A stretch of DNA of 64,000 bases from Gammaproteobacteria bacterium (GCA_965277405.1 OZ255726.1:1408001-1472000), one strand, 5' to 3'. Shown: positions 7,726 to 55,769, counted from the stretch's first letter. Notes: generated by a model not told the origin, from the letters alone. Program-made: numbers and translations.

Positions 7726-8975
7726 GGAACCTCTGATTAAGTCCCAAACAACAGCAATATCAGCTAGAAAGATATACAATGGTGAATCTATTTGAATATT
7801 TGAATAAGCGGATAATCTTATGAAACAAAGAACTTTTGCCAGTGCTGCATACGACCACAAGAAAGTAACAACGAAACCAAAAAAAATTCTTGCAATTGAT
7901 GGACAAATTAGCTCCGTGTTAGGGTTAATAGCGGTTGTTAGCGTTAATTTAGCGTTAATAGAACCGCATTATCCCAAGAAAGGGAATGGCCAGGACTACC
8001 AATTAATATGCAGACCATGTTACGCGTTTATTGTTTACAGCAATGGTACAACTTATCAGACCCAGGGGTAGAAGAAGCACTATATGACATGGAAAGCATG
8101 CGGCGTTTTGCCCATATAGAGCTGATAGACGATGCCATCCCTGATGAAACCACCATCTTGAACTTGCCCGCAGGGTCATACAAAATCATCAACTCAGCGT
8201 CAAGATACTTGCTGTGGTGAATGAGTATTTTATGGAAAATAATATAACAATCTCACAAGGGACGATGGTTGATGCCACGACCATCAATGCGCCATCATCT
8301 ACGAAGAATAAAGAGAAAAAACGGGATCCTGAAATGCATCAAACCCGCAAAGGCAATCAGTGGTATTTTGGCATGAAGATTCATATAGGAACTGACGCTA
8401 ATAGCAATATGATGCATAGCGCGGCAATGCCTACCACCACAGCCGCGAATGAAGCGGACATCAATGAACTCCCCAAATTGCTGCGTGAAACAGATAAGGT
8501 TATCTTTGCCGATGCAGGATATACGAGCGACAGTTATAAACGCGGCTCGCGTCACCTTGGGATAGATTGGCGCGTGAATGATAAACGTAAACCAAAGCAG
8601 CAAATGAGCGGCTCGCAGCGCCAACGCAATACACAGAACTCTAATGCGCGCCCGGATTGAGCACTGTTTTCGGGTAATCAAATGTCAGTTTGGTTATAAG
8701 AAAGCTCGCTACAAAGGACTAGAAAAGAATCGAGTACAAGTATTTTCTTTGCTTGCATTGACGAACTTATACATGCTGCGCGGACGACTAACGGGATAGA
8801 ACCGCCCAAAATTCAAGAAAAACAGTAAAAAACAATAAAAACAGTAAAAAACAGTAAAACAGCAACACGAAGATCAGCGAAATGATCAAATATTGACCAT
8901 TGAAAATTATTGCTATTATTTTTTTGGAGTATATGCGAGTTATTGGAGTATATGAGCGTCTTAATCAGAGCTTCC
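7726..8975 (+). mobile_element. IS5-family insertion sequence, copy 1, frameshifted transposase
   Basis: TIRs GGAACCTCTGATTAAG / CTTAATCAGAGCTTCC; transposase split over ORFs at 7820, 8008 and 8214; flanks TTAA/TTAG. Confidence 0.95.
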
Positions 8976-11165: not shown

Positions 11166-11603
11166 ATGATAGCTATTCACGCTTTAACAGATTGTCATAA
11201 AGATTCATGGTCTCGGTTATGGAAGCAATACCTAGCCTTCTACAAGGTGGCAAGGAGCAACACTGTTTTTGATTTGACTTTTTCGCGACTAATTGACGAA
11301 GATGCAGAATGTGAAGGGTATATCGCATACATTGACGGCAATGCAGTGGGAATTGTCCACTGTATTTATCACCTACACCTCTGGCAGCAGGAAAAGATCT
11401 GCTATTTGCAGGATTTATTCGTGGATAAAAATTACAGGAAACACGGTGTTGCCAGCAAATTAATATCACAAATTTATGCGCGTGCAGACGAGAAAAACGC
11501 GAAAGGTGTGTATTGGCTGACACAGGACTTCAATATAGCAGCCCGAAATTTATACGACAAGATAGGGTATAAAACGCCTTTTATAAAATATGCACGCACA
11601 TGA
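11166..11603 (+). CDS. GNAT acetyltransferase (Hpa2/Hpa3-like)
   Basis: WSRLWKQYLAFY, YLQDLFVD..YRKHGVA, VYWLTQ..N..AR.LYDK motifs. Confidence 0.9.
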   Translation: MIAIHALTDCHKDSWSRLWKQYLAFYKVARSNTVFDLTFSRLIDEDAECEGYIAYIDGNAVGIVHCIYHLHLWQQEKICYLQDLFVDKNYRKHGVASKLISQIYARADEKNAKGVYWLTQDFNIAARNLYDKIGYKTPFIKYART

Positions 11604-11669
11604 AAAAGAATATAGTTATCATTGGCACTGGTATAAACGGGTTGATGTGCGCTTACCATTTGGTGAAGC

Positions 11670-11940
11670 CTCGCTGATGGAGCGAGTTTGCCTGCAATTG
11701 CTGATGATTGCAAGGCGCAAACCGCTAAGCGCATGCCGTAGCATATACGCCAAGGGATGCAACACAGCAAGTACCGCTTGTAGGCAAACCATCATATATT
11801 CAATAGAAGGCCGGGAAAAAACGCTGCGCTAACGTCGTTGCAGCACTTGATAATACCACCAGTATTATCTGCGCACTGCGTCTAGCTATCATCAGCGTTT
11901 TTTCTCCGTCTCGCCCATCATGGACTTAATCAGAGCTTCC
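11670..11940 (-). mobile_element. IS5-TIR MITE, one end truncated
   Basis: Reverse complement of the repeat at 35654 and 54285; ends CCCATCATGGACTTAATCAGAGCTTCC; 4 bp from IS5 copy 2. Confidence 0.9.
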
Positions 11941-11944
11941 TTAA

Positions 11945-13163
11945 GGAATCTCTGATTAAGTCCCAAACAACAGCAATATCAGCTACAAAGATATACAATG
12001 GTGAATCTATTTGAATATTTGAATAAGCGGATAATCTTATGAAACAAAGAACTTTTGCCAGTGCTGCATACGACCACAAGAAAGTAACAACAAAACGTGA
12101 AAAATTCTTGCAGTTAATGGACAAATTAGCTCCATGGCAACAGTTGTTAGCGTTAATAGAACCGCATTATCCCAAGAAAGGGAATGGCCGCCCACCGATT
12201 AATATGCAGACCATGTTACGCATTTATTTTTTACAGCAATGGTACAACTTATCAGACCCAGGGGTAGAAGAAGCACTATATGACATGGAAAGCATGCGGC
12301 GTTTTGCCCATATAGAGCTGATAGACGATGCCATCCCTGCTGAAACTACCATCTTGAACTTGCCCGCAGGATCATAGAAAAACATCAACTCAGCGTCAAG
12401 ATACTTGCTGGGGTGAATGACTATTGTATGGAAAATAATATAACAATCTCACCAGGGACGATGGTTGATGCCACGATCATCCATGCACCGTCGTCTACGA
12501 AGAATAAAGAGAAAGCCCGTGATCCTGAAATGCATCAAACCCGCAAAGGCAATCAGTGGTATTTTGGCATGAAGATTCATATAGGAACTGACGCTAATAG
12601 CAATATGATGCATAGCGCGGCAATGCCTACCACCACAGCTGCGAATGAAGCTGACATCAATGAACTCCCAAAATTGCTGCGTGAAACAGATAAGGTTATC
12701 TTTGCCGATGCAGGATATACGAGCGACAGTTATAAACGCGGCTCGCGTCATCTTGGGATAGATTGGCGTGTGAATGATAAACGCAAGCCACAGCAGCAAA
12801 TGAGCGGCTCGCAGCGCCAACGCAATACACAGAACTCTAAGGTGCGCGCACGGATTGAGCACTGTTTTCGGGTAATCAAATGTCAGTTTGGTTATAAGAA
12901 AGCTCGCTACAAAGGACTAGAAAAGAACCGAGTACAAGTATTTTCTTTGCTTGCATTGACGAACTTGTACATGCTTCGAGGACGGCTAACAGGATAGAAC
13001 CGCCAAAAATTCAAGAAAAACAGTAAAAAACAGTAAAAAACAGTAAAACAGCAACAGAAGATCAGCGAAATCGTCAAATATTGACCATTGAAAATTATTG
13101 CTATTACTTTTTTGGAGTATATGCGAGTTCTTGGAGTATATGCGAGTCTTAATCAGAGCTTCC
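11945..13163 (+). mobile_element. IS5-family insertion sequence, copy 2, frameshifted transposase
   Basis: Both TIRs present; transposase split into 12039-12377 and 12413-12997. Confidence 0.95.
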
Positions 13164-13167
13164 TTAG

Positions 13168-14395
13168 GGAATCTCTGATTAAGTCCCAAACAACAGCAAT
13201 ATCAGCTACAAAGATATACAATGGTGAATCTATTTGAATATTTGAATAAGCGGATAATCTTATGAAACAAACAACTTTTGCCAGTGCTGCATACGACCAC
13301 AAGAAAGTAACAACAAAACGTGAAAAATTCTTGCAGTCGATGGACAAATTAGCTCCATGGCAACGGTTGTTAGCGTTAATAGAACCGCATTATCCCAAGA
13401 AAGGGAATGGCCGCCCACCAATTAATATGCAGACCATGTTACGCGTTTATTGTTTACAGCAATGGTACAACTTATCAGACCCAGGGGTAGAAGAAGCACT
13501 ATATGACATGGAAAGCATGCGGCGTTTTGCCCATATAGAGCTGATAGACGATGCCATCCCTGATGAAACTACCATCTTGAACTTCCGCAGGATCATAGAA
13601 AAGCATCAACTCAGCGTCAAGATACTTGCTGTGGTGAATGAGTATTGTATGGAAAATAATATAACAATCTCACAAGGGTCGATGGTTGATGCCACGATCA
13701 TCCATGCACCATCATCTACGAAGAATAAAGAGAAAGCCCGTGATCCTGAAATGCATCAAACAAGGAAAGGCAATCAGTGGTATTTTGGCATGAAGATTCA
13801 TATAGGAACTGACGCTAATAGCAATATGATTCATAGCGCGACAGTGACAGCCGCGAATGAAGCTGACATCAATGAACTCCCCAAATTGCTGCGTGAAACA
13901 GATAAGGTTATCTTTGCCGATGCAGGATATACGAGCGACAGTTATAAACGCGGCTCGCGTCACCTTGGGATAGATTGGCGTGTGAATGATAAACGTAAAC
14001 CAAAGCAGCAAATGAGCACCTCGCAGCGCAAACGCAATAGACAGAACTCTAAGGTGCGCGCCCGGATTGAGCACTGTTTTCGGGTAATCAAATGTCAGTT
14101 TGGTTATAAGAAAGCTCGCTACAAAGGACTAGAAAAGAATCGAGTACAAGTATTTTCTTTGCTTGCATTGACGAACTTATACATGCTGCGAGGACGACTA
14201 ACAGGATAGAACCGCCCAAAATTCAAGAAAAACAGTAAAAAACAATAAAAACAGTAAAAAACAGTAAAAAACAGTAAAACAGCAACACGAAGATCAGCGA
14301 AATGATCAAATATTGACCATTGAAAATTATTGCTATTATTTTTTTGGAGTATATGCGAGTTATTGGAATATATGCGAGTCTTAATCAGAGCTTCC
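13168..14395 (+). mobile_element. IS5-family insertion sequence, copy 3, intact
   Basis: Both TIRs, TTAG on both sides, uninterrupted 315-aa transposase. Confidence 0.97.
13262..14209 (+). CDS. IS5-family DDE transposase
   Basis: MVDATII, FADAGY and [10 protein letters not shown] catalytic motifs; N-terminal HYPK..GRPP..LQQWYNLSD. Confidence 0.97.
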   Translation: MKQTTFASAAYDHKKVTTKREKFLQSMDKLAPWQRLLALIEPHYPKKGNGRPPINMQTMLRVYCLQQWYNLSDPGVEEALYDMESMRRFAHIELIDDAIPDETTILNFRRIIEKHQLSVKILAVVNEYCMENNITISQGSMVDATIIHAPSSTKNKEKARDPEMHQTRKGNQWYFGMKIHIGTDANSNMIHSATVTAANEADINELPKLLRETDKVIFADAGYTSDSYKRGSRHLGIDWRVNDKRKPKQQMSTSQRKRNRQNSKVRARIEHCFRVIKCQFGYKKARYKGLEKNRVQVFSLLALTNLYMLRGRLTG

Positions 14396-14399
14396 TTAG

Positions 14400-15607
14400 G
14401 GAATCTCTGATTAAGTCCCAAACAACAGCAATATCAGCTACAAAGATATAGAATGGTGAATCTATTTGAATATTTGAATAAGCGGATAATCTTATGAAAC
14501 AAACAACTTTTGCCAGTGCTGCATACGACCACAAGAAAGTAACAACAAAACGTGAGAAATTCTTGCAGTCGATGGACAAATTAGCTCCATGGCAACGGTT
14601 GTTAGCGTTAATAGAACCGCATTATCCCAAGAAAGGGAATGGCCGCCCACCAATTAATATGCAGACCATGTTACGCGTTTATTGTTTACAGCAATGGTAC
14701 AACTTATCAGACCCAGGGGTAGAAGAAGCACTATATGACATGGAAAGCATGCGGCGTTTTGCCCATATAGAGCTGATAGACGATGCCATCCCTGATGAAA
14801 CCACCATCTTGAACTTCCGCAGGATCATAGAAAAACATCAACTCAGCGTCAAGATACTTGCTGTGGTGAATGAGTGTTGTATGGAAAATAATATAATAAT
14901 CTCACAAGGGTCGATGGTTGATGCCACGATCATCCACGCACCATCATCTACGAAGAATAAAGAGAAAGCCCGTGATCCTGAAATGCATCAAACAAGGAAA
15001 GGCAATCAGTGGTATTTTGGCATGAAGATTCATATAGGAACTGACGCTAATAGCAATATGATTCATAGCGCGACAGTGACAGCCGCGAATGAAGCGGACA
15101 TCAATGAACTCCCCAAATTGCTGCGTGAAACAGATAAGGTTATCTTTGCCGATGCAGGATATACGAGCGACAGTTATAAACGCGGCTCGCGTCATCTTGG
15201 GATAGATTGGCGTGTGAATGATAAACGCAAGCCAAAGCAGCAAATGAGCACCTCGCAGCGCAAACGCAATAGACAGAACTCTAAGGTGCGCGCCCGGATT
15301 GAGCACTGTTTTCGGGTAATCAAATGTCAGTTTGGTTATAAGAAAGCTCGCTACAAAGGACTAGAAAAGAATCGAGTACAAGTATTTTCTTTGCTTGCAT
15401 TGACGAACTTATACATGCTGCGCGGACGACTAACAGGATAGAACCGCCCAAAATTCAAGAAAAACAATAAAAAACAGTAAAAAACAGTAAAACAGCAACA
15501 GAAGATCTGCGAAATGGTCAAATATTGACCATTGAAAATTATTGCTATTACTTTTTTGGAGTATATGCGAGTTATTGGAATATATGCGAGTCTTAATCAG
15601 AGCTTCC
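14400..15607 (+). mobile_element. IS5-family insertion sequence, copy 4, intact
   Basis: Both TIRs; flanks TTAG/TTAA; uninterrupted transposase. Confidence 0.97.
14494..15441 (+). CDS. IS5-family DDE transposase
   Basis: Near-identical to 13262-14209 (differs at NEYC/NECC and ITIS/IIIS). Confidence 0.97.
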   Translation: MKQTTFASAAYDHKKVTTKREKFLQSMDKLAPWQRLLALIEPHYPKKGNGRPPINMQTMLRVYCLQQWYNLSDPGVEEALYDMESMRRFAHIELIDDAIPDETTILNFRRIIEKHQLSVKILAVVNECCMENNIIISQGSMVDATIIHAPSSTKNKEKARDPEMHQTRKGNQWYFGMKIHIGTDANSNMIHSATVTAANEADINELPKLLRETDKVIFADAGYTSDSYKRGSRHLGIDWRVNDKRKPKQQMSTSQRKRNRQNSKVRARIEHCFRVIKCQFGYKKARYKGLEKNRVQVFSLLALTNLYMLRGRLTG

Positions 15608-15641
15608 TTAAGGAAGGGGTGTGTTTTTCAACAGCCTGTTA

Positions 15642-16309
15642 AAGGAGCACAAAACCCGCTCCTGGGATGACATCACCATTAACAATCTGGTCAGTACCAT
15701 CGCGGCTGAACATCAACTGGAATCAAGTGTCGGAAAATTGATAGTGCGACCAACCTTCCCCATCTGGATCAAACCGAAGAGTCCGATCTGCATCTGTTGA
15801 CACGGCTAGCCAAGCAATATGACGCCGTAGCTAAGCCTGTCGGAGGCTTTTTGCTGTTTGTCCAGAAAGGTGAAGCTAAAAGCGCTACTGGCAAGACAAT
15901 TCCAGCAGTGGTCATCAGCCGCAACCAAACCAGCGACCATCGAATAACCATGGCTGATCGAGGTAAATATGCAACCGTGCTGGCTCACTGGCACAACACA
16001 GCAACAGGTACCCGTACACCAGTGCGAGTGGGAGACAGCAAACCAGTTTATACCCTGCGCCATAACTACTAGGATGCTGAAACTGCCAGAGCTGCCGCGC
16101 AAGGCAAGCTGGATGCTCTCAACCGTGGTCTGGCCACCGCCAGTGTGACATTGAAACAGGGAAACCCACTCTTAGCAGCAGAAGCCAAGGTGACATTATC
16201 AGGATTCAGAACCGGCGTGGCGGGTGACTGGGTAGTGACTCAAGTCAATCACGAATTCAGCGACAGCGGGTACAGCACCAGCGTGGAGGCAGAAACACCG
16301 AAACGCTAA
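15642..16309 (+). pseudogene. P2-like phage late control / tail protein D remnant
   Basis: KTRSWDDITI..IAAEH, HLDQTEESDLHLLTRLA, G.PLLAAE, W.VTQVNHEF...GYST; 5' end missing, frameshift near 15740, in-frame stop at 16070-16072. Confidence 0.8.
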
Positions 16310-16449
16310 GAGAAAAAAAAGAAAGCGACCACCAAAGGTACAGCAGCACCTAAAGTGGTCGTCAAGCCACGGTAGCAAAAGTACCGTGAACCAACCAAGT
16401 ATTCCCCACCGTGAACACGGCATGGGTGAGCTTATCAAAAATATTAAGG

Positions 16450-17221
16450 ATGTTCACGTTGAGACCACAACCAATTATCCCCTTGATGGGCGGCAAAAGA
16501 CGCCTAGCCAAGGAAATACTACCTCTATTTAAGGTGCACAAAACCAATGTGGAACCGTTCTGTGGCGGAGCTGCCATATTCTTTTACAAACTGGAATCAT
16601 CCGTCGCGGTTCTGAACGACTGCAACGGCGGACTGGTGAACCTTTATAGGGTCGTTAAACACCATTTAGAGGAGTTTTTAAGGCCTTGCAAATGGGCTCT
16701 GGTCAGCCGTTGGGAGTTCCTCTGGCAGAAGACATCCAACCCTGGAAACCCTGACCGATATCCAACGCGCTAGCCGCTTCTACTACCACCAGAAGATGGC
16801 GTTTGGTGGTAAAGTATCCAGTCAGACTTTCGGCACCTCGGCAGTCAGTCCTCCCAAGCTCAACCTGCTGCGGATTGAGGAAGATCTGTTCACCGCGCAC
16901 CTGCGGGTGGACAGAGTCTATATCGAGCATCTTGACTGGCCCGATTGTGTGAAGAAATATGATCGGGAGGGTACACTGTTTCACCTTGATCCCCCTTACT
17001 GGGGCACAGCCAGTTATGGCATGGACTTTGGGCTGGAACAATACAAACTGATGGCAGAGCTGGCCCGAATTGTTCAAGGCAGAATGATTATATCGGTCAA
17101 CGATATTCCAGAGATGAGAGCTGCTTGCGAGGGTCTGTCCATGCGTTCTCTTGGCATTAGATACACAATGGGTGGGCGCAAGGGCAGCCAAGCCAAAGGG
17201 CTACTGATCTGGAATTGGTAG
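16450..17221 (+). pseudogene. Phage-type Dam/D12-class N6-adenine DNA methyltransferase, frameshifted
   Basis: GGKRRLA, EPFCGGAAIFF (motif I) and LDPPY (motif IV); frame break near 16740. Confidence 0.85.
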
Positions 17222-17319
17222 TAAAAACGGAAAAAACGTCGCCATGGTGCGTCGGACACGTTAAAACCGTTTCCGCAAACCAGTACAGAAAGTTCGTAAA
17301 CCAAATGCGCTGCTACATG

Positions 17320-17545
17320 ATAAGCACATTGATGATGGAATTATGCGGAAAAAGCCACGCGGTCAGGCACACGTTAGCAAAAGGCTGGTAACAAGTTGAT
17401 ATCATCAACACGCTTTGTGGTCGAGAGAACTTTCGCCACAATGACAAGGGTGTATGGTCTCCAGCGCACGATATCTTGGCATAGCCAAAGTCGATGCTGA
17501 GGTTGAAGGCAATGGCGTATAACTTGAAAAGGGATCGCAACTTAT
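17320..17545 (+). pseudogene. C-terminal relic of a different IS5-family (IS1106-like) transposase
   Basis: Fragments across frames read DDGIMRKKPRG, TRFVVERTFATM, ARYLGIAKV and LKAMAYNLKR. Confidence 0.7.
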
Positions 17546-17659
17546 ATCAACAACAGCAGCAGTATTGCTCTTAAATGGTGGGAAATAGGACCAAAAAAGA
17601 CCGGATAAATGGGCATATATGCACCATTTTCGGAGCATTCTATGTTTTTTTTCAGTAAA

Positions 17660-17788
17660 AATCTCCAATCTCCAATCTCCAATCTCCAATCTCCAATCTC
17701 CAATCTCCAATCTCCAATCTCCAATCTCCAATCTCCAATCTCCAATCTCCAATCTCCAATCTCCAATCTCCAATCTCCAATCTCCAAT
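17660..17788. repeat. Perfect heptamer tandem repeat (AATCTCC) x ~18
   Basis: Directly visible; followed by degenerate units TTACAAT/TTCC. Confidence 0.98.
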
Positions 17789-17928
17789 TTACAATTTCCC
17801 ACGCAGCAAAGCAAAAAATGAGGTCTTATTGTAGTTGTCTTCATTCATGCAGCGCTTGCAAGCCAACAAAACGCATCTGCATCAGCAACGTAATCTGAAC
17901 TTGCCGATGCAGAGCTACAATTGAGTTA

Positions 17929-18426
17929 TCAGTCAAGAAACAAATCATCAAAATTTTTGTCTTGATGCTGTGCCAAATGCTTGACCATCGTGGTGCTGAT
18001 AACCGCATGAATATCTATGTGATTTTCATGGTGGATAAGGTTTTTGACAAGAAAGTCACGAACACGGTTAATCTGTTCGATTTCATCAACTTGGACATGC
18101 AACAACACATCAAAAAATCCACTGACATGATAAATCGCATACACTTCGCTTATATCAAGCAATTTGCGCTTAAATGTATCAAACTCTAATCCACCGAGCT
18201 TAAAGGTAATGAAGGCATCGATGGTACGAACAACATTGGTATTGCCAAAAATTGTATGATAGCCACGGATAACCCTTAAATCTTCTAGCTTACTTAACCG
18301 TTGATTGACAGCACTTCTTGAAAGCCCAATGCTGCGTGAAATATGCGCAATAGGGATTCTGGCGTTGTCTTTAAGGTGGGCGAGAATTCTGCGATCATAA
18401 CGATCTAATACTAATTTATTACTCAT
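17929..18426 (-). CDS. Lrp/AsnC family transcriptional regulator
   Basis: LDRYDRRIL..L..NARI.I..I...IGLS..AV..R...LE...VI.GY HTH plus a RAM domain (VSG.FD.LL.V). Confidence 0.9.
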   Translation of the reverse strand: MSNKLVLDRYDRRILAHLKDNARIPIAHISRSIGLSRSAVNQRLSKLEDLRVIRGYHTIFGNTNVVRTIDAFITFKLGGLEFDTFKRKLLDISEVYAIYHVSGFFDVLLHVQVDEIEQINRVRDFLVKNLIHHENHIDIHAVISTTMVKHLAQHQDKNFDDLFLD

Positions 18427-19127
18427 GATTTACTCCATTCTCCTCGCATATACAGCGAAGTTTGTAAAGCAACAATATCAATGATAGTCACATTCTTGTT
18501 GCTATAATTACTAGGAATACCCAGTATTTGAATAAATGAATAACTACAACACATCACATAGTGAGTTTTGTATTGTTGTTACACACTATCCGTATATTAT
18601 ATACAACAAAACTATTTTGTATATACAATCGGTGTTGTGTTATATCGTCGCCAAGGGTGCCATACCTGCCTGCTGGTCTGGTATACTTGTTGCGATTTAG
18701 AGCAACCACTACGTATAGGTACCGCTATTTTATGAGTGTTTTCAACTCCTTGTAGTTAATAGCAACCCGTTTGCAGCCCGCAATGGCAGGAAATTTGACC
18801 GACTGTTATGTAGTTTTGCTTGCAAATTGAGACATTTAGTATTCATCATACGCTCTTTAGCGCTTCATCAGTGCCGCATTTGATTTGCGTCTTAGCTCTG
18901 AACGTTGTGCCCCTGTATTCCCTGTTTTTTTTATACGGGACATTAATACTGTATAGAGGAGATGGATACAGTCGCGGTTTCTGTCGTAACATCACACAAA
19001 ACACCACATTTGTAGCTGCAGCTCTTCATCATGTTTTTGCTCTTGACTAGGATTGAAAAGCTGTTTTTATTCATTTTTTATTGTCTTTCATGCGTTTTTG
19101 CTAAATTTCCTATGTTTTGGACGCACT

Positions 19128-19420
19128 AATAGGGGGGATGGGAATAAATGAGACTGTAAGTTGTAAATAAATGAGACTCTACAGTTGAGCAAATTTGTTG
19201 ATTTTATGCGGGTTGTAGCGTGAATCCCTTATGGCGCTTAGGTTGTAGGATGGTAGGGGAATTATTACCGTTTGCTTCCGTTTTGTGCACTCCTCGGCAA
19301 TAATTGTAGCGTTTATCGAGGTTTTACGGGGATTACTGCTTTGCAAAAACGTGAAATTTAACGTAAAAAAGCGTGTTTAAAAAGCAATTATTTTACGTTA
19401 AAAACGTGTTAAATAAATGG
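19128..19420 (-). mobile_element. Probable terminus of a Mu-like transposable prophage
   Basis: Two direct repeats AATAAATGAGACT (19143, 19166), an inverted repeat TTAACGTAAAA/TTTTACGTTAA and A/T tracts, immediately downstream of the MuF cassette. Confidence 0.4.
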
Positions 19421-19461
19421 TGTTTTTTAGGAGTGATTCGCAACAATGATGTGGCCGCGAT

Positions 19462-19764
19462 TTAATAGATAATGTCGCCACTGCGTACCGCAGCTGCGTA
19501 TTCGTCATCTGGTAATAATTGACCAAACACATCCCAGCGCGACTCAAAAAACACACCTAAGTCTGCTTCAGTAACTTTTTTATGAAAAAAATAAAAATTT
19601 ACTGGAGGTCTTGTAGCAAAACCTTTATTTAATATAGCTTTATTAAGTATGTCTTGCAACATTGATGCATCTTTACCAGAAAAGAGTTGGGTTCTATAAT
19701 TAAAGGTGAACTCTACGTCTGGATAATCTTCGTCTATAGACTTGAGGCTGTATGATTTTTTCAT
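19462..19764 (-). CDS. Small hypothetical protein, candidate immunity partner of the MuF-linked peptidase
   Basis: 100-aa AT-rich ORF overlapping the MuF stop codon by 4 bp (ATGA). Confidence 0.6.
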   Translation of the reverse strand: MKKSYSLKSIDEDYPDVEFTFNYRTQLFSGKDASMLQDILNKAILNKGFATRPPVNFYFFHKKVTEADLGVFFESRWDVFGQLLPDDEYAAAVRSGDIIY

Positions 19765-21504
19765 GTTTTGTATTTAAATAGTATACCTAGTGCAGTGTCA
19801 AATAGCGATTGGTCGATGCGGATAAAATCAAAAAACATCTTGGTATCTGACCAAGCATGCCGCTCTGACTTCCACGTTGTGCCCTTGTCGATTCTACCAA
19901 GAAGTTTATCAAAAGACATTGTCATTATTTCTAGAGCAGGTGCATTTGGAGTATGATTATATTCACGGCCAACATAGGGGTGATAATAACTGTCTTTGCG
20001 AGTAACCTCACTCCTATCATATCCTGAATGTGCTACATCACGCAAACGCTCTAATGAGTCGCCTTTGGTACGTTGGTCATGAACGTTTTGAAATACGGCA
20101 TCGAGTTTTGGAAGTCCTCGCTGCAAGTGGTGTGCATATTCATGCACAGTAGAATGATGGTTGTCAGTGGCTATATGTTTATCATAACTTCGATAGAACG
20201 CTCTTCCGTGCGTTAATACCGCACTCACTTCACCCAGCTCATTGGTCTTATCCGTCCAGTCATCTGGATAACGTTGCGAGGCTTCTCGCACCAATTTCGC
20301 GCCTTTGCCGTTACCTTTCACCAGTGCCACGTTGTTAATGCCACGCACTGCCGCTAATCGCGCCAACAACTGCTCTTGAAATTCGCCGATATATAGCTGT
20401 CCTGATTTAGCAAAATCCTGTGAGTTTTGCACATCGACAAGCCCATCAAGGAACGTTTTACCGTTGCGCATTTTGCTGTTGAAAATGCCCTCGCGCACCT
20501 TTGTACCTTCACGCTCGTAGAGCTTTGGATCACTGCTGTTTGTAAAGCTCGCAACAGGGTTTGTAGCCGCTGTTGTCGTCTGTTCTGGCTGCCAATGCCC
20601 ACCACCTGTTGGCTGATACGCAACCGTGATGGTGCGGCAATTAAAATGATACGGTGGTGAACCTGCGCTGTGATCGACAGGAGTTGTGGTACTAAACATT
20701 TTCCAAGCTGATTTTGCAGCATCGGCATCTTTGTTATTAGTAGCAGCTAAATATCTATGGCGTTGTTGTGTTAATTGGGTGACTGGGATAATGGTACCGT
20801 GCAATTCACGGCACACCGCAGACGTTTTATCGTCTAGATACGCCTGTACTTTTACATATTGAATCCCAGCGCGTTAATAGCCTGTCACTCGACCCATCTC
20901 ACGGGTTTTTGTCGCAGTATGATCTGCCAGCATATGCCAATACGCACTGCTTTTATCAACGACATCAGCTAAGCCGTGCGCTAGAGCCTTGGCCAATTGC
21001 GGTTGAGTCATGCCGTCGGTAAATAAAGCATCTAACTTGCTGTTAATAATTTTGCTGGTATGACTGTCCCAATGCTGCCCAACCCAAAACAGATTGCTAG
21101 TATGGATTTGCTCTAGCGCATCAAAATCGACAGTTTGAAAACCAATATCAACCGCTACTTCTTTGGCGCCTATTTTTATACAACGCACCACCCAGATTGA
21201 TAATTGGTTTGCGCAATGCCGCAACCATTGCATCGCCACCTAAATCATTGGCCAATACCTTATAGATAACATCAATATCCTCCTTGGCGATTGTCGTCCC
21301 CAAATCACGACTTACATCAAGAGCTCTGGCAATCCCACTCTTGGCAGTATCACTCCACGCCCGCGTATACATATCTTTTAAGTCAGTCGTTAATCGCTCA
21401 AAAGCAGCATCGTATTTTAACAAGAAAATGGTGACACTACGACGTACTATCGCCCTACGGATGGTTTTTTCTATATACAGATTAACACTTTCACTTGGCA
21501 TCAA
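19761..21504 (-). pseudogene. MuF/SPP1-gp7 head morphogenesis protein with C-terminal HExxH metallopeptidase-like extension
   Basis: AYLDDKTSAVCRELHG and PPYHFNCRT MuF motifs; STVHEYAHHLQ; +1 frameshift in the A5 run at 21173-21177; in-frame TAA at 20874-20876. Confidence 0.8.
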
Positions 21505-21694
21505 ATAATCCTTGCTGCGTTGGCCGCGTGGATTGAGATTTACACGTATAACGTTTTACATCACCATGGGTTTCTTCCGCTGTTTTCCAGCGATGATCAC
21601 AGCTTAAGCATTTGCGCCACCGCTCCACAAATGCTTCATTTGGTCGAGTTCCATAAATGCGGATTGCGGAAGAACCGCATTTATGGCAGATCAC
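21491..21694 (-). CDS. Small zinc-ribbon protein (NrdR-N / Ogr-like phage regulator)
   Basis: CHKC...TR......RWRKCLSC.HRWKT.E pattern. Confidence 0.7.
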   Translation of the reverse strand: MICHKCGSSAIRIYGTRPNEAFVERWRKCLSCDHRWKTAEETHGDVKRYTCKSQSTRPTQQGLFDAK

Positions 21695-21723
21695 TAGGTG
21701 TAAATGCTACGGAGGTTGTTTAG

Positions 21724-22942
21724 GGAATCTCTGATTAAGTCCCAAACAACAGCAATATCAGCTACAAAGATATACAATGGTGAATCTATTTGAATATTTG
21801 AATATTTGAATAAGCGGATAATCTTATGAAACAAACAACTTTTGCCAGTGCTGCATACGACCACAAGAAAGTAACAACGAAACCAAAAAAAATTCTTGCA
21901 GTTAATGGACAAATTAGCTCCATGGCAACAGTTGTTAGAGTTAATAGAACCGCATTATCCCAAGAAAGGGAATGGCCGCCCACCGATTAATATGCAGACC
22001 ATGTTACGCATTTATTTTTTACAGCAATGGTACAACTTATCAGACCCAGGCGTAGCAGAAGCACTATATGACATGGAAAGCATGAGGCGTTTTGCCCAGA
22101 TAGAGCTGATAGACGATGCCATCCCTGCTGAAACTACCATCTTGAACTTGCCCGCAGGATCATAGAAAAACATCAACTCAGCGTCAAGATACTTGCTGTG
22201 GTGAATGAGTATTGTATGGAAAATAATATAACAATCTCACAAGGGTCGATGGTTGATGCCACGATCATCCACGCACCATCATCTACGAAGAATAAAGAGA
22301 AAGCCCGTGATCCTGAAATGCATCAAACAAGGAAAGGCAATCAGTGGTATTTTGGCATGAAGATTCATATAGGAACTGACGCTAATAGCAATATGATTCA
22401 TAGCGCGGCAATGCCTACCACCACAGCCGCGAATGAAGCTGACATCAATGAACTCCCCAAATTGCTGCGTGAAACAGATAAGGTTATCTTTGCCGATGCA
22501 GGATATACGAGCGACAGTTATAAACGCGGCTCGCGTCATCTTGGGATAGATTGGCGTGTGAATGATAAACGCAAGCCAAAGCAGCAAATGAGCACCTCGC
22601 AGCGCCAACGCAATACACAGAACTCTAAGGTGCGCGCCCGGATTGAGCACTGTTTTCGGGTAATCAAATGTCAGTTTGGTTATAAGAAAGCTCGCTACAA
22701 AGGACTAGAAAAGAATCGAGTACAAGTATTTTCTTTGCTGGCATTGACGAACTTATACATGCTGCGAGGACGACTAACAGGATAGAACCGCCCAAAATTC
22801 AAGAAAAACAGTAAAAAACAATAAAAACAGTAAAAAACAGTAAAACAGCAACACGAAGATCAGCGAAATGATCAAATATTGACCATTGAAAATTATTGCT
22901 ATTATTTTTTTGGAGTATATGAGCGTCTTAATCAGAGCTTCC
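21724..22942 (+). mobile_element. IS5-family insertion sequence, copy 5, frameshifted transposase
   Basis: Both TIRs; transposase broken at two sites. Confidence 0.95.
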
Positions 22943-53140: not shown

Positions 53141-54295
53141 ATGGAATACGAAAAAAAAAATAGTAAGTCGTCAGCAATACACATCGATGACGAATTAAAC
53201 GAATACCTTGTGGCGGAATTATCGGCAAAAGAAGAGCAGCGGGTAGACGATGATGCCATGAACGCAATAGGTGAACAACAAGTCGACGCTATTGCAACGA
53301 TCAATAGTAATGCAGCGTTGCGTGCCGCCAATGCACAATCACTAACAATGCCTGTGGCTGACACGATGACAATGCAGGCAACCGAAGCGAAAGAAAAGCA
53401 AGAAAAAATAAAAATAACTTTTGGTCAGTTTCTAGGAGACACTCGCAAAAACAGAAAACTCGACATATCGCTGGTAGCTCAAGAAACCAAAATAAACAAA
53501 CAGTATTTATTGGCACTTGAACAAGAAAAATTTTCCGCTATTCCCACCACGACGTTTTTGTATGGTTACGCGCGGGCATATGCTCGATTTTTGCACATCA
53601 ACGAAAGTGTTGTTATCAAGCTACTTGTAGTTGCTATTAACAATAATAAAGAGTATGTAGTGACCAAGCCAACAGCGAGCACAATCAATCGCAACAATGG
53701 ATACGGACCATCAATAGATTATTCAAAAACGCAATTTAATCTTAACGAACATAGCAATAAAAATTTGTTTGCGTTCGGGATAATCGTTATCATTATTCTT
53801 GGTATTATGGGGGTTGTATTGTATCAGATGTTGCAAATGCCAACGCCAAGCAATACCACTGCAGTCATCGAAATTCCGCAAATGCCAGCTGAACCTCCTG
53901 CAATACCTAGCGAGGAAACTGTTTTTCCAGTTATTGATGAAAACGCTGAATTTACAATATCCCCGCAGCAGCCTGCAACTGATGCATTTACAGCAGGCAT
54001 AGATGACATTAATACCATAGGCAGCACTGAGCCTATAATACCAGTAGCAATAACAAAGAAAGTTGAGTTGATACTTGATGGCGAACATTGGGTGCAAATT
54101 TTAGAAAAAAACAATAACTTGGTGATTTCACAAAATTTTTATGGGCAACAAACACTTACATATATGGTAACGCCGCCAATTCGTATTACTTACGGAAATG
54201 CTGCAAGTGTAAGGCTGTGGTATGATGGCAAATTCATTGATACGCGTCAGTATAACAAGCGAAATGTTGTGCGGATTACCTTGGGGAAGCTCTGA
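53141..54295 (+). CDS. rodZ: Cytoskeleton protein RodZ
   Basis: HTH (G..L...R..R...VA..TKI...L.ALE; F.YGY.R.YA), single TM, C-terminal WV.I...GNA..V domain. Confidence 0.88.
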   Translation: MEYEKKNSKSSAIHIDDELNEYLVAELSAKEEQRVDDDAMNAIGEQQVDAIATINSNAALRAANAQSLTMPVADTMTMQATEAKEKQEKIKITFGQFLGDTRKNRKLDISLVAQETKINKQYLLALEQEKFSAIPTTTFLYGYARAYARFLHINESVVIKLLVVAINNNKEYVVTKPTASTINRNNGYGPSIDYSKTQFNLNEHSNKNLFAFGIIVIIILGIMGVVLYQMLQMPTPSNTTAVIEIPQMPAEPPAIPSEETVFPVIDENAEFTISPQQPATDAFTAGIDDINTIGSTEPIIPVAITKKVELILDGEHWVQILEKNNNLVISQNFYGQQTLTYMVTPPIRITYGNAASVRLWYDGKFIDTRQYNKRNVVRITLGKL

Positions 54296-54576
54296 TTAAG
54301 TCCATGATGGGCGAGACGGAGAAAAAACGCTGATGAAATTTAAGCGCAGTACGCAGATAACACTGGTGGTCTTGTGGGTGTTGCCAAGTGCTGCAACGAC
54401 GCAGCGCAGCGTTTTTTCCCGGCCTTCTATTGAATATATGATGGTTTGCCTACAAGCGGTACTTGCTGTGTTGCATCCCTTGGCGTATATGCTATGGCAT
54501 GCGCCTGCGGAATGCGCCTTGCAATCATCAGCAATTTCCGCAAACTCGCTCCATCAGCGACTTAATCAGAGCTTCC
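54285..54576 (+). mobile_element. Full-length IS5-TIR MITE (292 bp) inserted in the last codons of rodZ
   Basis: TTGG|GGAAGCTCTGATTAAGTC ... GACTTAATCAGAGCTTCC|TTAG. Confidence 0.95.
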
Positions 54577-54686
54577 TTAGGGAAACTCTAATTAGGATAT
54601 GCTGACCGTAGCGGATAACACCATAACCAGCAATGTTATAGCATAGTGCGTTATTGTTCTGAACATTTAGTGGCGGGTATCCAAGC

Positions 54687-55769
54687 ATGATGATGCAACG
54701 GCGTCATTCATTAGTTGTTCGTGTTGGTTCCTGCGTTGTTGGCGGCGATGCGCCAGTGAGTGTGCAAAGCATGACGAATACCCCAACGTCTGATGTTGTT
54801 GCGACTGTTGCGCAAATCAAACAACTTGAGCAAGCTGGCGCAGATATTGTTAGAATTTCTGTGCCAGATAGTGCTTGTGTCGCTGCGTTTACCGCAATTC
54901 GCCAACAAGTAGATATTCCGCTGGTTGCCGATATTCATTTTGATCATTCTATTGCACTTGAAGTAGCAAAAGTTGGTGCGGATTGTTTGCGGATTAACCC
55001 TGGCAATATTGGCTCCGAACGTAAAATAACCGAAGTTATTCAATGCGCGAAACACCTTGATATTCCAATTCGTATTGGCGTGAATGCAGGTTCTTTAGAG
55101 AAGGATTTACAACGCAAATATGGTGAGCCGACAGCAGCAGCGTTGGTCGAGTCGGCAATGCGCCATGTGTCAATTTTACAGCGCCATAAGTTTGCACATT
55201 TTAAAGTCAGCGTTAAAGCCTCAGATGTGGCAATGTCGGTTGATGCGTATACGGCATTAGCAAAAGAAATCGAGCAACCGTTGCACCTTGGGATTACTGA
55301 ATCTGGAGGTATCCGCAATGGCGCAGTGCGCTCGGCAATTGGGATAGGCATGTTATTAGCTCGAGGGATTGGCGATACTATTAGGGTATCGTTGGCAGCA
55401 GACCCTGTAGAAGAAGTCAAAGTCGGTTGGGATATGTTAAAAGCGCTCAAGCTGCGTAGTCGCGGGGTAAACTTGATTGCCTGCCCGAGTTGTTCTAGAC
55501 AGAATTTTGACGTGATTGGCACGGTCAACGCATTGGAACAACGGTTTGAAGACATTGTCGACCCGATTGATATCGCCATCATTGGCTGTTATGTAAATGG
55601 CCCAGGTGAGTCGCGAGAAGTTGCGTTGGGTGTCACTGGCGGACCAAAAGATAATCTTATTTTTAGTGACGGCAAACCTGCTGATCGTGTTTCCAACGCA
55701 GCATTGCTCGATACATTCGAAGCCATGGTTCGAAAAAAAATTCACGGTGGCAGCGCTCCAAATGTGTAG
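54687..55769 (+). CDS. ispG: HMBPP synthase IspG
   Basis: [48 protein letters not shown]. Confidence 0.98.

Follow-up and report, generated by a model that had tools for sequence, protein, structure and literature searches.

IS30 of Escherichia coli is an insertion sequence (IS) with a dual target specificity, inserting either into hot spots or beside its own inverted repeat, and the transposase of IS911 is cited as directing insertion beside sequences that resemble its own ends (PMC9333248; here and below, statements on published systems refer to the portions of the cited articles that were accessible). Here we describe a head-to-tail chain of three IS copies and one MITE (miniature inverted-repeat transposable element) within a 64,000-nucleotide stretch of a Gammaproteobacteria bacterium genome (GCA_965277405.1 OZ255726.1:1408001-1472000; hereafter the window, with positions counted from its first nucleotide). 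The element resembles E. coli IS5 and the IS5 group in its transposase family, its length of approximately 1.2 kb, its GGAA termini and its 4-bp YTAR target duplication. IS911 differs in that it belongs to the IS3 family, makes a 3-bp duplication and passes through a circle intermediate. Throughout the genome, copies of the IS5-group element lie exactly 4 bp from another terminal inverted repeat (TIR) far more often than random insertion predicts, and we consider it probable that an IS-carrying unit takes as its target the 4-bp duplication that adjoins a resident terminal repeat.

The IS and its MITE

The window is part of a single contig of 2,174,577 bp with a G+C content of 44.8%, which contains 38 IS copies longer than 1 kb, 34 of which are full-length. 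The IS copies measure 1208-1250 bp (typically ~1228 bp) and carry one open reading frame (ORF) of 315 amino acids and 16-nt TIRs (GGAAKCTCTGATTAAG). The encoded transposase matches NCBIfam NF033581 (transpos_IS5_4) with 327.5 bits (cut-off 140) and contains the Pfam domains DDE_Tnp_1 (1e-29) and DUF772 (1e-18), while no IS30 model is present among its NCBIfam and Pfam profile matches. Judged from its transposase sequence, the element belongs to the IS5 group of the IS5 family and would be IS30-like in behaviour only, not a member of that family. The GGAA start, which is typical of IS5-group termini, is also present in IS relatives from other genomes. Identical 4-bp flanks, as left by a YTAR target duplication, were identified in 82 of 217 paired elements, and 68 of these 82 are CTAA or TTAG.

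A short, non-coding element of 292 bp with CTAA/TTAG duplications has only its terminal 16-19 bp in common with the IS. Used as a query, it retrieves 305 BLAST hits genome-wide, including 152 full-length copies, and by its size, termini, duplication and copy number it is a MITE of this IS. The reference copy is located in the window and is followed by a fragment of a further terminus:

54285..54576, + strand: reference MITE, full length, 292 bp
54577..54596, no strand assigned: TTAG and a 16-nt TIR-like stub (GGAAACTCTAATTAGG, 13/16 matches), with no element body after it

The initial annotation of the window had seen the geometry of the chain recur at 54577; a full MITE, TTAG and a TIR-like stub are indeed present, but no element body lies beyond them and the DNA that follows is unique, so that the site repeats the geometry only in part. 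Such bodiless TIR stubs (13-34 nt) are located exactly 4 bp from a full element at window positions 54581-54596 and at genome positions 1387582-1387594 and 1097177-1097210, and are possibly the remnants of partners removed by deletion.

The chain in the window

Direct reading and a search for the TIR pattern (19 matches in the window, where 0.03 would be expected) resolve positions 11671-15611 into MITE-TTAA-IS1-TTAG-IS2-TTAG-IS3-TTAA, followed by GGAAG. This bears out the layout and the 4-bp spacers given in the initial annotation. The chain comprises the following features:

11671..11940, - strand: MITE body in reverse orientation, with ~90% identity to the reference MITE (54285-54576) and an intact right TIR that abuts the chain
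11941..11944, no strand assigned: spacer TTAA between the MITE TIR and the left TIR of IS1
11945..13163, + strand: IS1, a 1219-bp IS5-group copy with a broken transposase frame, the most diverged of the three
13164..13167, no strand assigned: spacer TTAG between the right TIR of IS1 and the left TIR of IS2
13168..14395, + strand: IS2, a 1228-bp copy with an intact 315-amino-acid DDE transposase ORF (13262-14209) and TTAG on both sides
14396..14399, no strand assigned: spacer TTAG between the right TIR of IS2 and the left TIR of IS3
14400..15607, + strand: IS3, a 1208-bp copy with an intact 315-amino-acid ORF (14494-15441)
15608..15611, no strand assigned: flank TTAA after IS3

Each junction forms a near-palindrome of the type CTTAATCAGAGCTTCC-YTAR-GGAATCTCTGATTAAG. 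The three IS copies had been described as non-identical (one frameshifted, two intact, with unequal subterminal repeats), and alignment, ORFs and repeat counts confirm this. The alignment contains 83 variable columns: IS1 alone deviates in 47, IS2 alone in 26 (for the most part a single indel) and IS3 alone in 10. The broken frame of IS1 is represented by ORFs at 12039-12377 and 12413-12997 (112 and 194 amino acids). IS2 has a terminal branch of zero length on the IS tree, and IS3 is its sister, 98.7% identical, with differences at 16 aligned positions plus indels. A subterminal 10-bp repeat (AAAAACAGTA) is present in 3.3, 5.3 and 3.3 units in IS1, IS2 and IS3, respectively, forming a microsatellite at 13016-13048, 14228-14279 and 15460-15492 whose unit number varies between IS copies. 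Beside it, just inside the right TIR, lie two 16-nt direct repeats (GGAGTATATGCGAGT-like), which may be candidate protein-binding sites.

Terminus-adjacent insertions across the genome

The evidence presented here is a genomic footprint in one assembly. The TIR pattern has 639 matches genome-wide, compared with 5 for the reversed pattern used as a control. Where two neighbouring TIRs face outward with less than 200 bp between them, 28 pairs have a 4-bp spacer, two a 3-bp spacer, one a 5-bp spacer and nine a spacer of another length; all 28 four-bp spacers are YTAR (12 TTAG, 10 CTAA, 4 TTAA and 2 CTAG). At least one abutting TIR exactly 4 bp away was identified in 23 of the 34 full IS copies, and 31 of 68 IS ends abut a TIR that belongs to a MITE (17 ends), to another IS (12 ends, six junctions) or to a stub (two ends). 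TIR-adjacent sites make up 278 of the 12,369 CTAA/TTAG sites in the genome (2.2%), and random use of these sites predicts ~0.8 junction IS copies, corresponding to an enrichment of ~30-fold. A genome-wide count of insertions 4 bp from another TIR, which the initial annotation had proposed as a check, thus reveals own-end insertion far above random, the footprint that characterizes IS30-type targeting of inverted repeats.

All six IS-IS junctions are head-to-tail, joining a right inverted repeat (IRR) to a left inverted repeat (IRL); a head-to-head pair would form a palindrome of 1.2 kb that might not persist, and typing as left or right has no real meaning for MITE ends. In a hand tally of the IS-MITE junctions, 11 involve the IRL and six the IRR, and both MITE ends are used. 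A constant pairing of particular IS ends with particular MITE ends was considered and rejected, as the tally revealed none. A five-member chain is located at genome positions 1384549-1387597, ~20 kb upstream of the window, and reads MITE-TTAG-IS-TTAG-MITE (with a degenerate TIR)-CTAA-IS-TTAG-13-nt TIR stub.

The proposal that the whole IS5/MITE family targets its own ends holds for the IS but not for the MITEs, of which only 2 of 290 ends abut another MITE or a stub, compared with 31 of 68 IS ends (Fisher p = 2e-23). MITE termini are several-fold more numerous than IS termini, and many MITEs are about as old as the IS copies; ~63 MITEs have a nearest neighbour at 96% identity or more. The near-absence of MITE-MITE abutment therefore points to an IS-carrying unit as the incoming partner. 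A transposase acting in cis is a possible reason for this asymmetry, by analogy with IS903, whose transposase is cis-acting. The transposase of E. coli IS5 is reported to act mainly in cis as well (PMC11677980). The idea that IS-adjacent MITEs seed solo MITEs found no support, as 12 of 138 solo MITEs have an IS-adjacent MITE as their nearest neighbour, where 9.3% would be expected (p = 0.63).

Target specificity, site availability and ancestry

Outside CTAA, the 49 solo sites carry no information (no position exceeds 0.16 bit). The terminus therefore does not appear to mimic an extended sequence target, and an extended target motif resembling the TIR was rejected. A repeat terminus is faced by an IS end in 31 cases and a repeat interior in two, although the interiors contain 390 CTAA/TTAG sites and terminus-adjacent positions 278 (P of at least 22 of 24 events = 4e-7). 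Selection for harmless sites alone can thus not explain the pattern. TIRs abutted by an IS are perfect in 16 of 20 cases, compared with 193 of 549 elsewhere (p = 1e-4), and MITEs next to an IS show the lowest divergence (median identity to the nearest neighbour of 98.1% versus 94.4%). Both observations fit recognition of an intact end, but fit recency too.

On the tree of the 38 IS copies, junction status requires 11 changes, as many as with shuffled labels (mean 11.4), which indicates that junctions originated repeatedly, in separate IS lineages. A derived transposase lineage that alone targets ends was rejected, as copies in junctions and solo copies do not separate on the tree. Tandem IS partners are non-sisters in five of six junctions. 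Furthermore, the alignment of the window trimer reveals no left/right hybrid pattern in IS2, and its origin by unequal crossing-over between IS1 and IS3 was rejected on these grounds.

Composite elements and their spacers

Sixteen chains were tabulated by script, one row of which (IS 1418796..1419940) is a mis-parse of the window chain, with a weak TIR 1.1 kb upstream paired with the right end of the window MITE. The outer flanks are equal in 11 of the 16 chains, against 0.165 expected by chance. Five chains have an identical 4-mer at every position (e.g., CTAA-MITE-CTAA-IS-CTAA-IS-CTAA at 2029032-2031773), which is the hallmark of an insertion that enters the target duplication of a resident element and duplicates it anew. 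Six equal-flank chains have a different inner spacer, at least in part because composites transpose. An identical 1516-bp MITE-CTAA-IS unit is present at genome positions 53721-55236, 1248041-1249556 and 1528045-1529560 in unrelated flanks, with duplications of ctaa/ctaa, ttag/ttag and ttag/ttag, respectively. As each copy has its own 4-bp duplication, the IS and the MITE move as one transposon, and the unit, consisting of two elements with outer termini and one target duplication, is a compound transposon. Part of the junction pattern is thus secondary, with composites moving as units. The window chain follows the same grammar, with IS2 between two TTAG and the entire IS block between two TTAA.

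Occurrence in other genomes and metagenomes

Metagenome contigs were scanned for pairs of outward-facing IS5-type termini with 2-8 bp between them, which yielded at least 119 stretches, 80 loci of which were analysed; the scan has no denominator and speaks to occurrence and re-use of the target duplication, not to enrichment. Of the 83 matches listed for these 80 loci, 64 have a gap of 4 bp and 11 a gap of 6 bp, with any other length in at most three each, and 47 of the 64 four-bp spacers listed are YTAR. On 20 of the 27 resolved element sides among the matches listed, the flank at the far end is identical to the junction spacer (0.27 expected by chance; p = 5e-7). A transposase relative is encoded in 16 of the 80 loci listed, including two head-to-tail pairs and one tail-to-tail pair. 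Metagenome contig L092 (193-2524) contains IS5-type elements of 1139 and 1179 bp placed tail-to-tail across CTAG, with CTAG outer flanks, indicating that inverted pairs can persist when the partners differ. Contig L101 (11824-12415) contains a head-to-tail array of at least four MITE-like 151-bp units separated by CTAA.

Five named genomes with 50-133 IS5-type ends have 0, 0, 0, 0 and 3 junctions, against chance expectations of 0.02-0.19. Candidatus Endonucleobacter bathymodioli accounts for the three junctions, two of which resemble one composite; no closer relative than its IS was identified (75% amino acid identity). No junction was identified in 40 same-class genomes compared. Among 400 other genomes sampled from the class, eight have one or two junctions (10 in total, one of them from genome G145), while in the same class-wide search the control pattern has no matches and the genome studied here has 24 exact matches. 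This genome thus represents the extreme of a widespread, low-frequency occurrence.

Prophage surroundings and the paralogous locus

On its right side, the chain is bounded by a fragment of a phage tail gene, and two solo IS copies in the window serve for comparison or delimit the adjoining segment:

7726..8975, + strand: solo IS copy with no abutting TIR, for comparison
15612..16375, + strand: phage tail protein gene, 5'-truncated and frame-broken (phrog_52 profile positions 282-534 of 677, PHROGs)
21724..22942, + strand: solo IS copy closing the 6-kb prophage remnant that begins at the chain

A Pfam search of the tail-gene fragments gave no match. The same tail-gene fragment is present at genome positions 858072-858835, where it adjoins an IS dimer, and the degraded prophage segment as a whole is duplicated (window 15612-22942 versus genome 851545-861292, ~96-98% identity over the best-matching 6 kb). 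Both segment copies are bounded by IS copies in direct orientation, and in both the tail gene is broken at the same TTAA; an outer duplication common to the two segments was not found (TTAA versus CTTA/TTAG). The paralogous locus (genome 858840-861292) reads TTAA-[IS-TTAG-IS]-TTAA, a dimer where the window has a trimer, so that a single [IS+TTAG] unit distinguishes the two loci. This reflects either entry of IS2 into the spacer or loss of a copy through recombination at the paralogous locus; both IS copies of the latter are mosaics of IS1-like and IS2/3-like sequence, and the data are therefore compatible with gain as well as with loss. The window chain as such reads as an IS multimer beside a MITE inside a prophage tail gene.

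On its left side, the chain MITE (genome BLAST match 1419671-1419940, MITE positions 1-276) has no outer 16-nt TIR, and its body begins at MITE position 17, where it is fused to a 23-codon gene start. This gene start (11603-11670) begins with MKKNIVIIGTGINGL, which we take to be a dinucleotide-binding-fold-like motif, and runs directly into the MITE body, so that the deletion ends precisely where the 16-nt TIR meets the MITE interior. Directly upstream of the truncated gene start lies a GNAT acetyltransferase gene (11166-11603), which is intact.

Mechanism and alternative explanations

The junction geometry, its enrichment, the control comparisons and the movement of composites are observed here; that the transposase itself recognizes the resident terminus is inferred, the likely route being transposase-TIR binding during target capture, by analogy with IR-targeting in IS30. 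In the mechanism that we propose, the IS would use ordinary CTAA/TTAG sites plus a second, strongly preferred target, namely the 4-bp duplication directly outside the intact TIR of a resident copy or of a same-ended MITE. Insertion at this position would re-duplicate the 4 bp and leave two termini abutted across a YTAR spacer, with the outermost termini of the pair remaining functional transposon ends. The resulting composites (MITE+IS, IS+IS) could then transpose as units, also into other TIR-adjacent sites, and chains would grow. A broader version of this proposal, which we advance tentatively and with some doubt, is that IS5-group transposases have a second, protein-guided and cis-only target mode (4 bp beside an intact own end), through which an IS might self-assemble with MITEs and sister copies into mobile concatemers. 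This broader version would provide IS5-type elements with a general route to build compound transposons and drag MITEs along, and would account for the TIR-YTAR-TIR junctions scattered through many environmental genomes.

Several observations weigh against insertion beside a resident terminus. A transposase targeting any TIR would be predicted to produce many MITE-MITE pairs, yet there is just one MITE-MITE and one MITE-stub case among 304 MITE ends, even though the MITEs are presumably moved by the same transposase. The inner spacer is the same as the outer flanks in only 5 of the 11 equal-flank chains, which is close to independence, and most chains may be secondary transpositions or products of a route that keeps a donor-derived spacer. 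Neither a promoter nor another functional signal was found at the junctions; a consensus scan for junction-made promoters identified none across any junction, with 8 promoter-like sites against 10.5 expected. Among the short-read contigs from one study (three runs, perhaps of the source sample), none unambiguously bridges a junction: flank contigs reach the outer chain ends (11500-11680 and 15581-15800), and the joints listed are explained by other copies. Four genomes with 50-85 IS5-group ends have no junction, although this counts weakly given chance expectations of at most 0.06 each.

The donor-derived spacer just mentioned would be expected of a junction pathway resembling that of IS30 or IS3, in which IS circles or tandem dimers with abutted IRR-4bp-IRL ends serve as intermediates and the resident element's own duplication is left flanking the pair (x-MITE-y-IS-x). 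The inner spacer differs in 6 of the 11 equal-flank chains, which is about the proportion predicted for an independent spacer, the spacer has the length of the target duplication, and an IS would always be the incoming partner if only the IS forms such intermediates. The IRR-IRL arrangement of all six IS-IS junctions is also that of IR-targeting by IS30 (PMC9333248). This orientation is weak evidence, however, given that head-to-head IS pairs are long palindromes that might not survive, and the identical composite at three loci requires composite transposition in any case. The agreement between junction spacer and far flank on 20 of 27 metagenome element sides among the matches listed argues against an independent spacer, and we know of no circle or junction intermediate for IS5-group elements. 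Furthermore, the junctions described here are old, diverged and fixed, whereas those of IS30 are reported to be highly reactive (PMC9333248), and overall we regard such a pathway as unlikely, although it is the strongest of the rival readings. Even less probable is that DNA structure rather than transposase-TIR recognition guides insertion, with a bent or destabilized element boundary or the TIR-4bp-TIR palindrome attracting the incoming element. Target choice of E. coli IS5 has been linked to DNA structural features (PMC5493358), and a preference for perfect TIRs would also fit a better hairpin potential. IS termini, however, lie 1.2 kb apart and are targeted per end about as often as MITE termini (6 junctions for 68 IS ends versus 14 of 304 MITE ends), and incoming MITEs should respond to the same structure but do not.

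The 'self-made safe harbour' suggested in the initial annotation would be an adaptive interpretation of the pattern. Random CTAA/TTAG insertion followed by purifying selection would turn the 'safe harbour' into survivorship, with the surviving IS copies lying in already dead DNA. The distribution of intact transposase ORFs might be read in this way: 11 of the 12 IS copies with an intact ORF are in junctions, while 13 of the 14 solo copies have a broken one. Selection leaves the exact 4-bp spacing unexplained, however; it would not favour the 31 IS ends at termini over the two that face 390 equally harmless interior sites, and MITEs under the same selection show no such adjacency, which makes this explanation very improbable. 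We attach an equally low probability to tandem amplification by unequal homologous recombination or slippage and to an assembly artefact from a collapsed or expanded repeat. The dimer at the paralogous locus, with its mosaic copies, illustrates that recombination between tandem copies occurs and can alter chain length, and the metagenome array of identical 151-bp units (L101) could have grown in this way. Most junctions, by contrast, join unrelated partners, 17 junction ends being IS-MITE with only 16-19 bp shared; tandem IS partners are mostly non-sisters, and the window trimer has no hybrid pattern. An assembler would not invent copies that differ by 1.3-3.8% plus indels, and the 28 junctions lie in unique flanks within the single 2.17-Mb contig.

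Implications

Target choice sets the damage that a transposon causes and how larger mobile units are built. If insertion beside resident termini is the correct reading, it would offer a simple origin for IS-MITE and IS-IS composites. It would also explain how reduced genomes dense in IS elements can retain intact copies while losing no more genes. In annotation, an array of head-to-tail IS copies in a long-read assembly is not necessarily an artefact. The system combines strong enrichment with an internal control for selection and stable products, and the contrast between IS and MITE ends offers a natural handle on cis- versus trans-action of the transposase.

Comparison with known systems

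A literature search, which left most subscription journals uncovered, retrieved no report of end-adjacent insertion or head-to-tail chains in the IS5 group, in agreement with the initial annotation, which had considered this behaviour undescribed for the group. Tourist MITEs, which form looser parallels to the chains, are moved by PIF/Harbinger transposases, relatives of IS5. Plant MITEs are adjacent or nested above expectation, with more than 10% of 6,600 rice MITEs in multimers (PMC5172404). These Tourist and Stowaway multimers are eukaryotic and arise by insertion of the MITEs themselves, whereas the MITEs described here do not self-associate. Among bacterial elements, IS26 also uses a resident terminal repeat as a preferred target (PMC8477213), but its targeted conservative reaction shares one IS copy between units and creates no duplication. 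IS4321 and IS5075 likewise prefer resident terminal repeats, namely the TIRs of the Tn21 family (PMC5001619), but they are IS110-family elements and target the TIR of another element, not their own.

The likeness to IS30 extends to the abutted IR-IR junction, a spacer with the length of the target duplication and the IRL-IRR orientation (PMC9333248). IS30 differs in its transposase family, its copy-out-paste-in transposition via circles, its 2-bp spacer and its reactive, short-lived junctions (PMC9333248), while the IS described here has a 4-bp spacer and fixed, diverged junctions, is mostly joined to non-autonomous MITEs and travels in composites. Fixed junctions with diverged partners argue against a high junction reactivity in this system. 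Self-end targeting is already known for IS30 and IS911; what is apparently new is its footprint in an IS5-group element, which would extend a behaviour worked out for circle-forming elements to one of the largest IS families.

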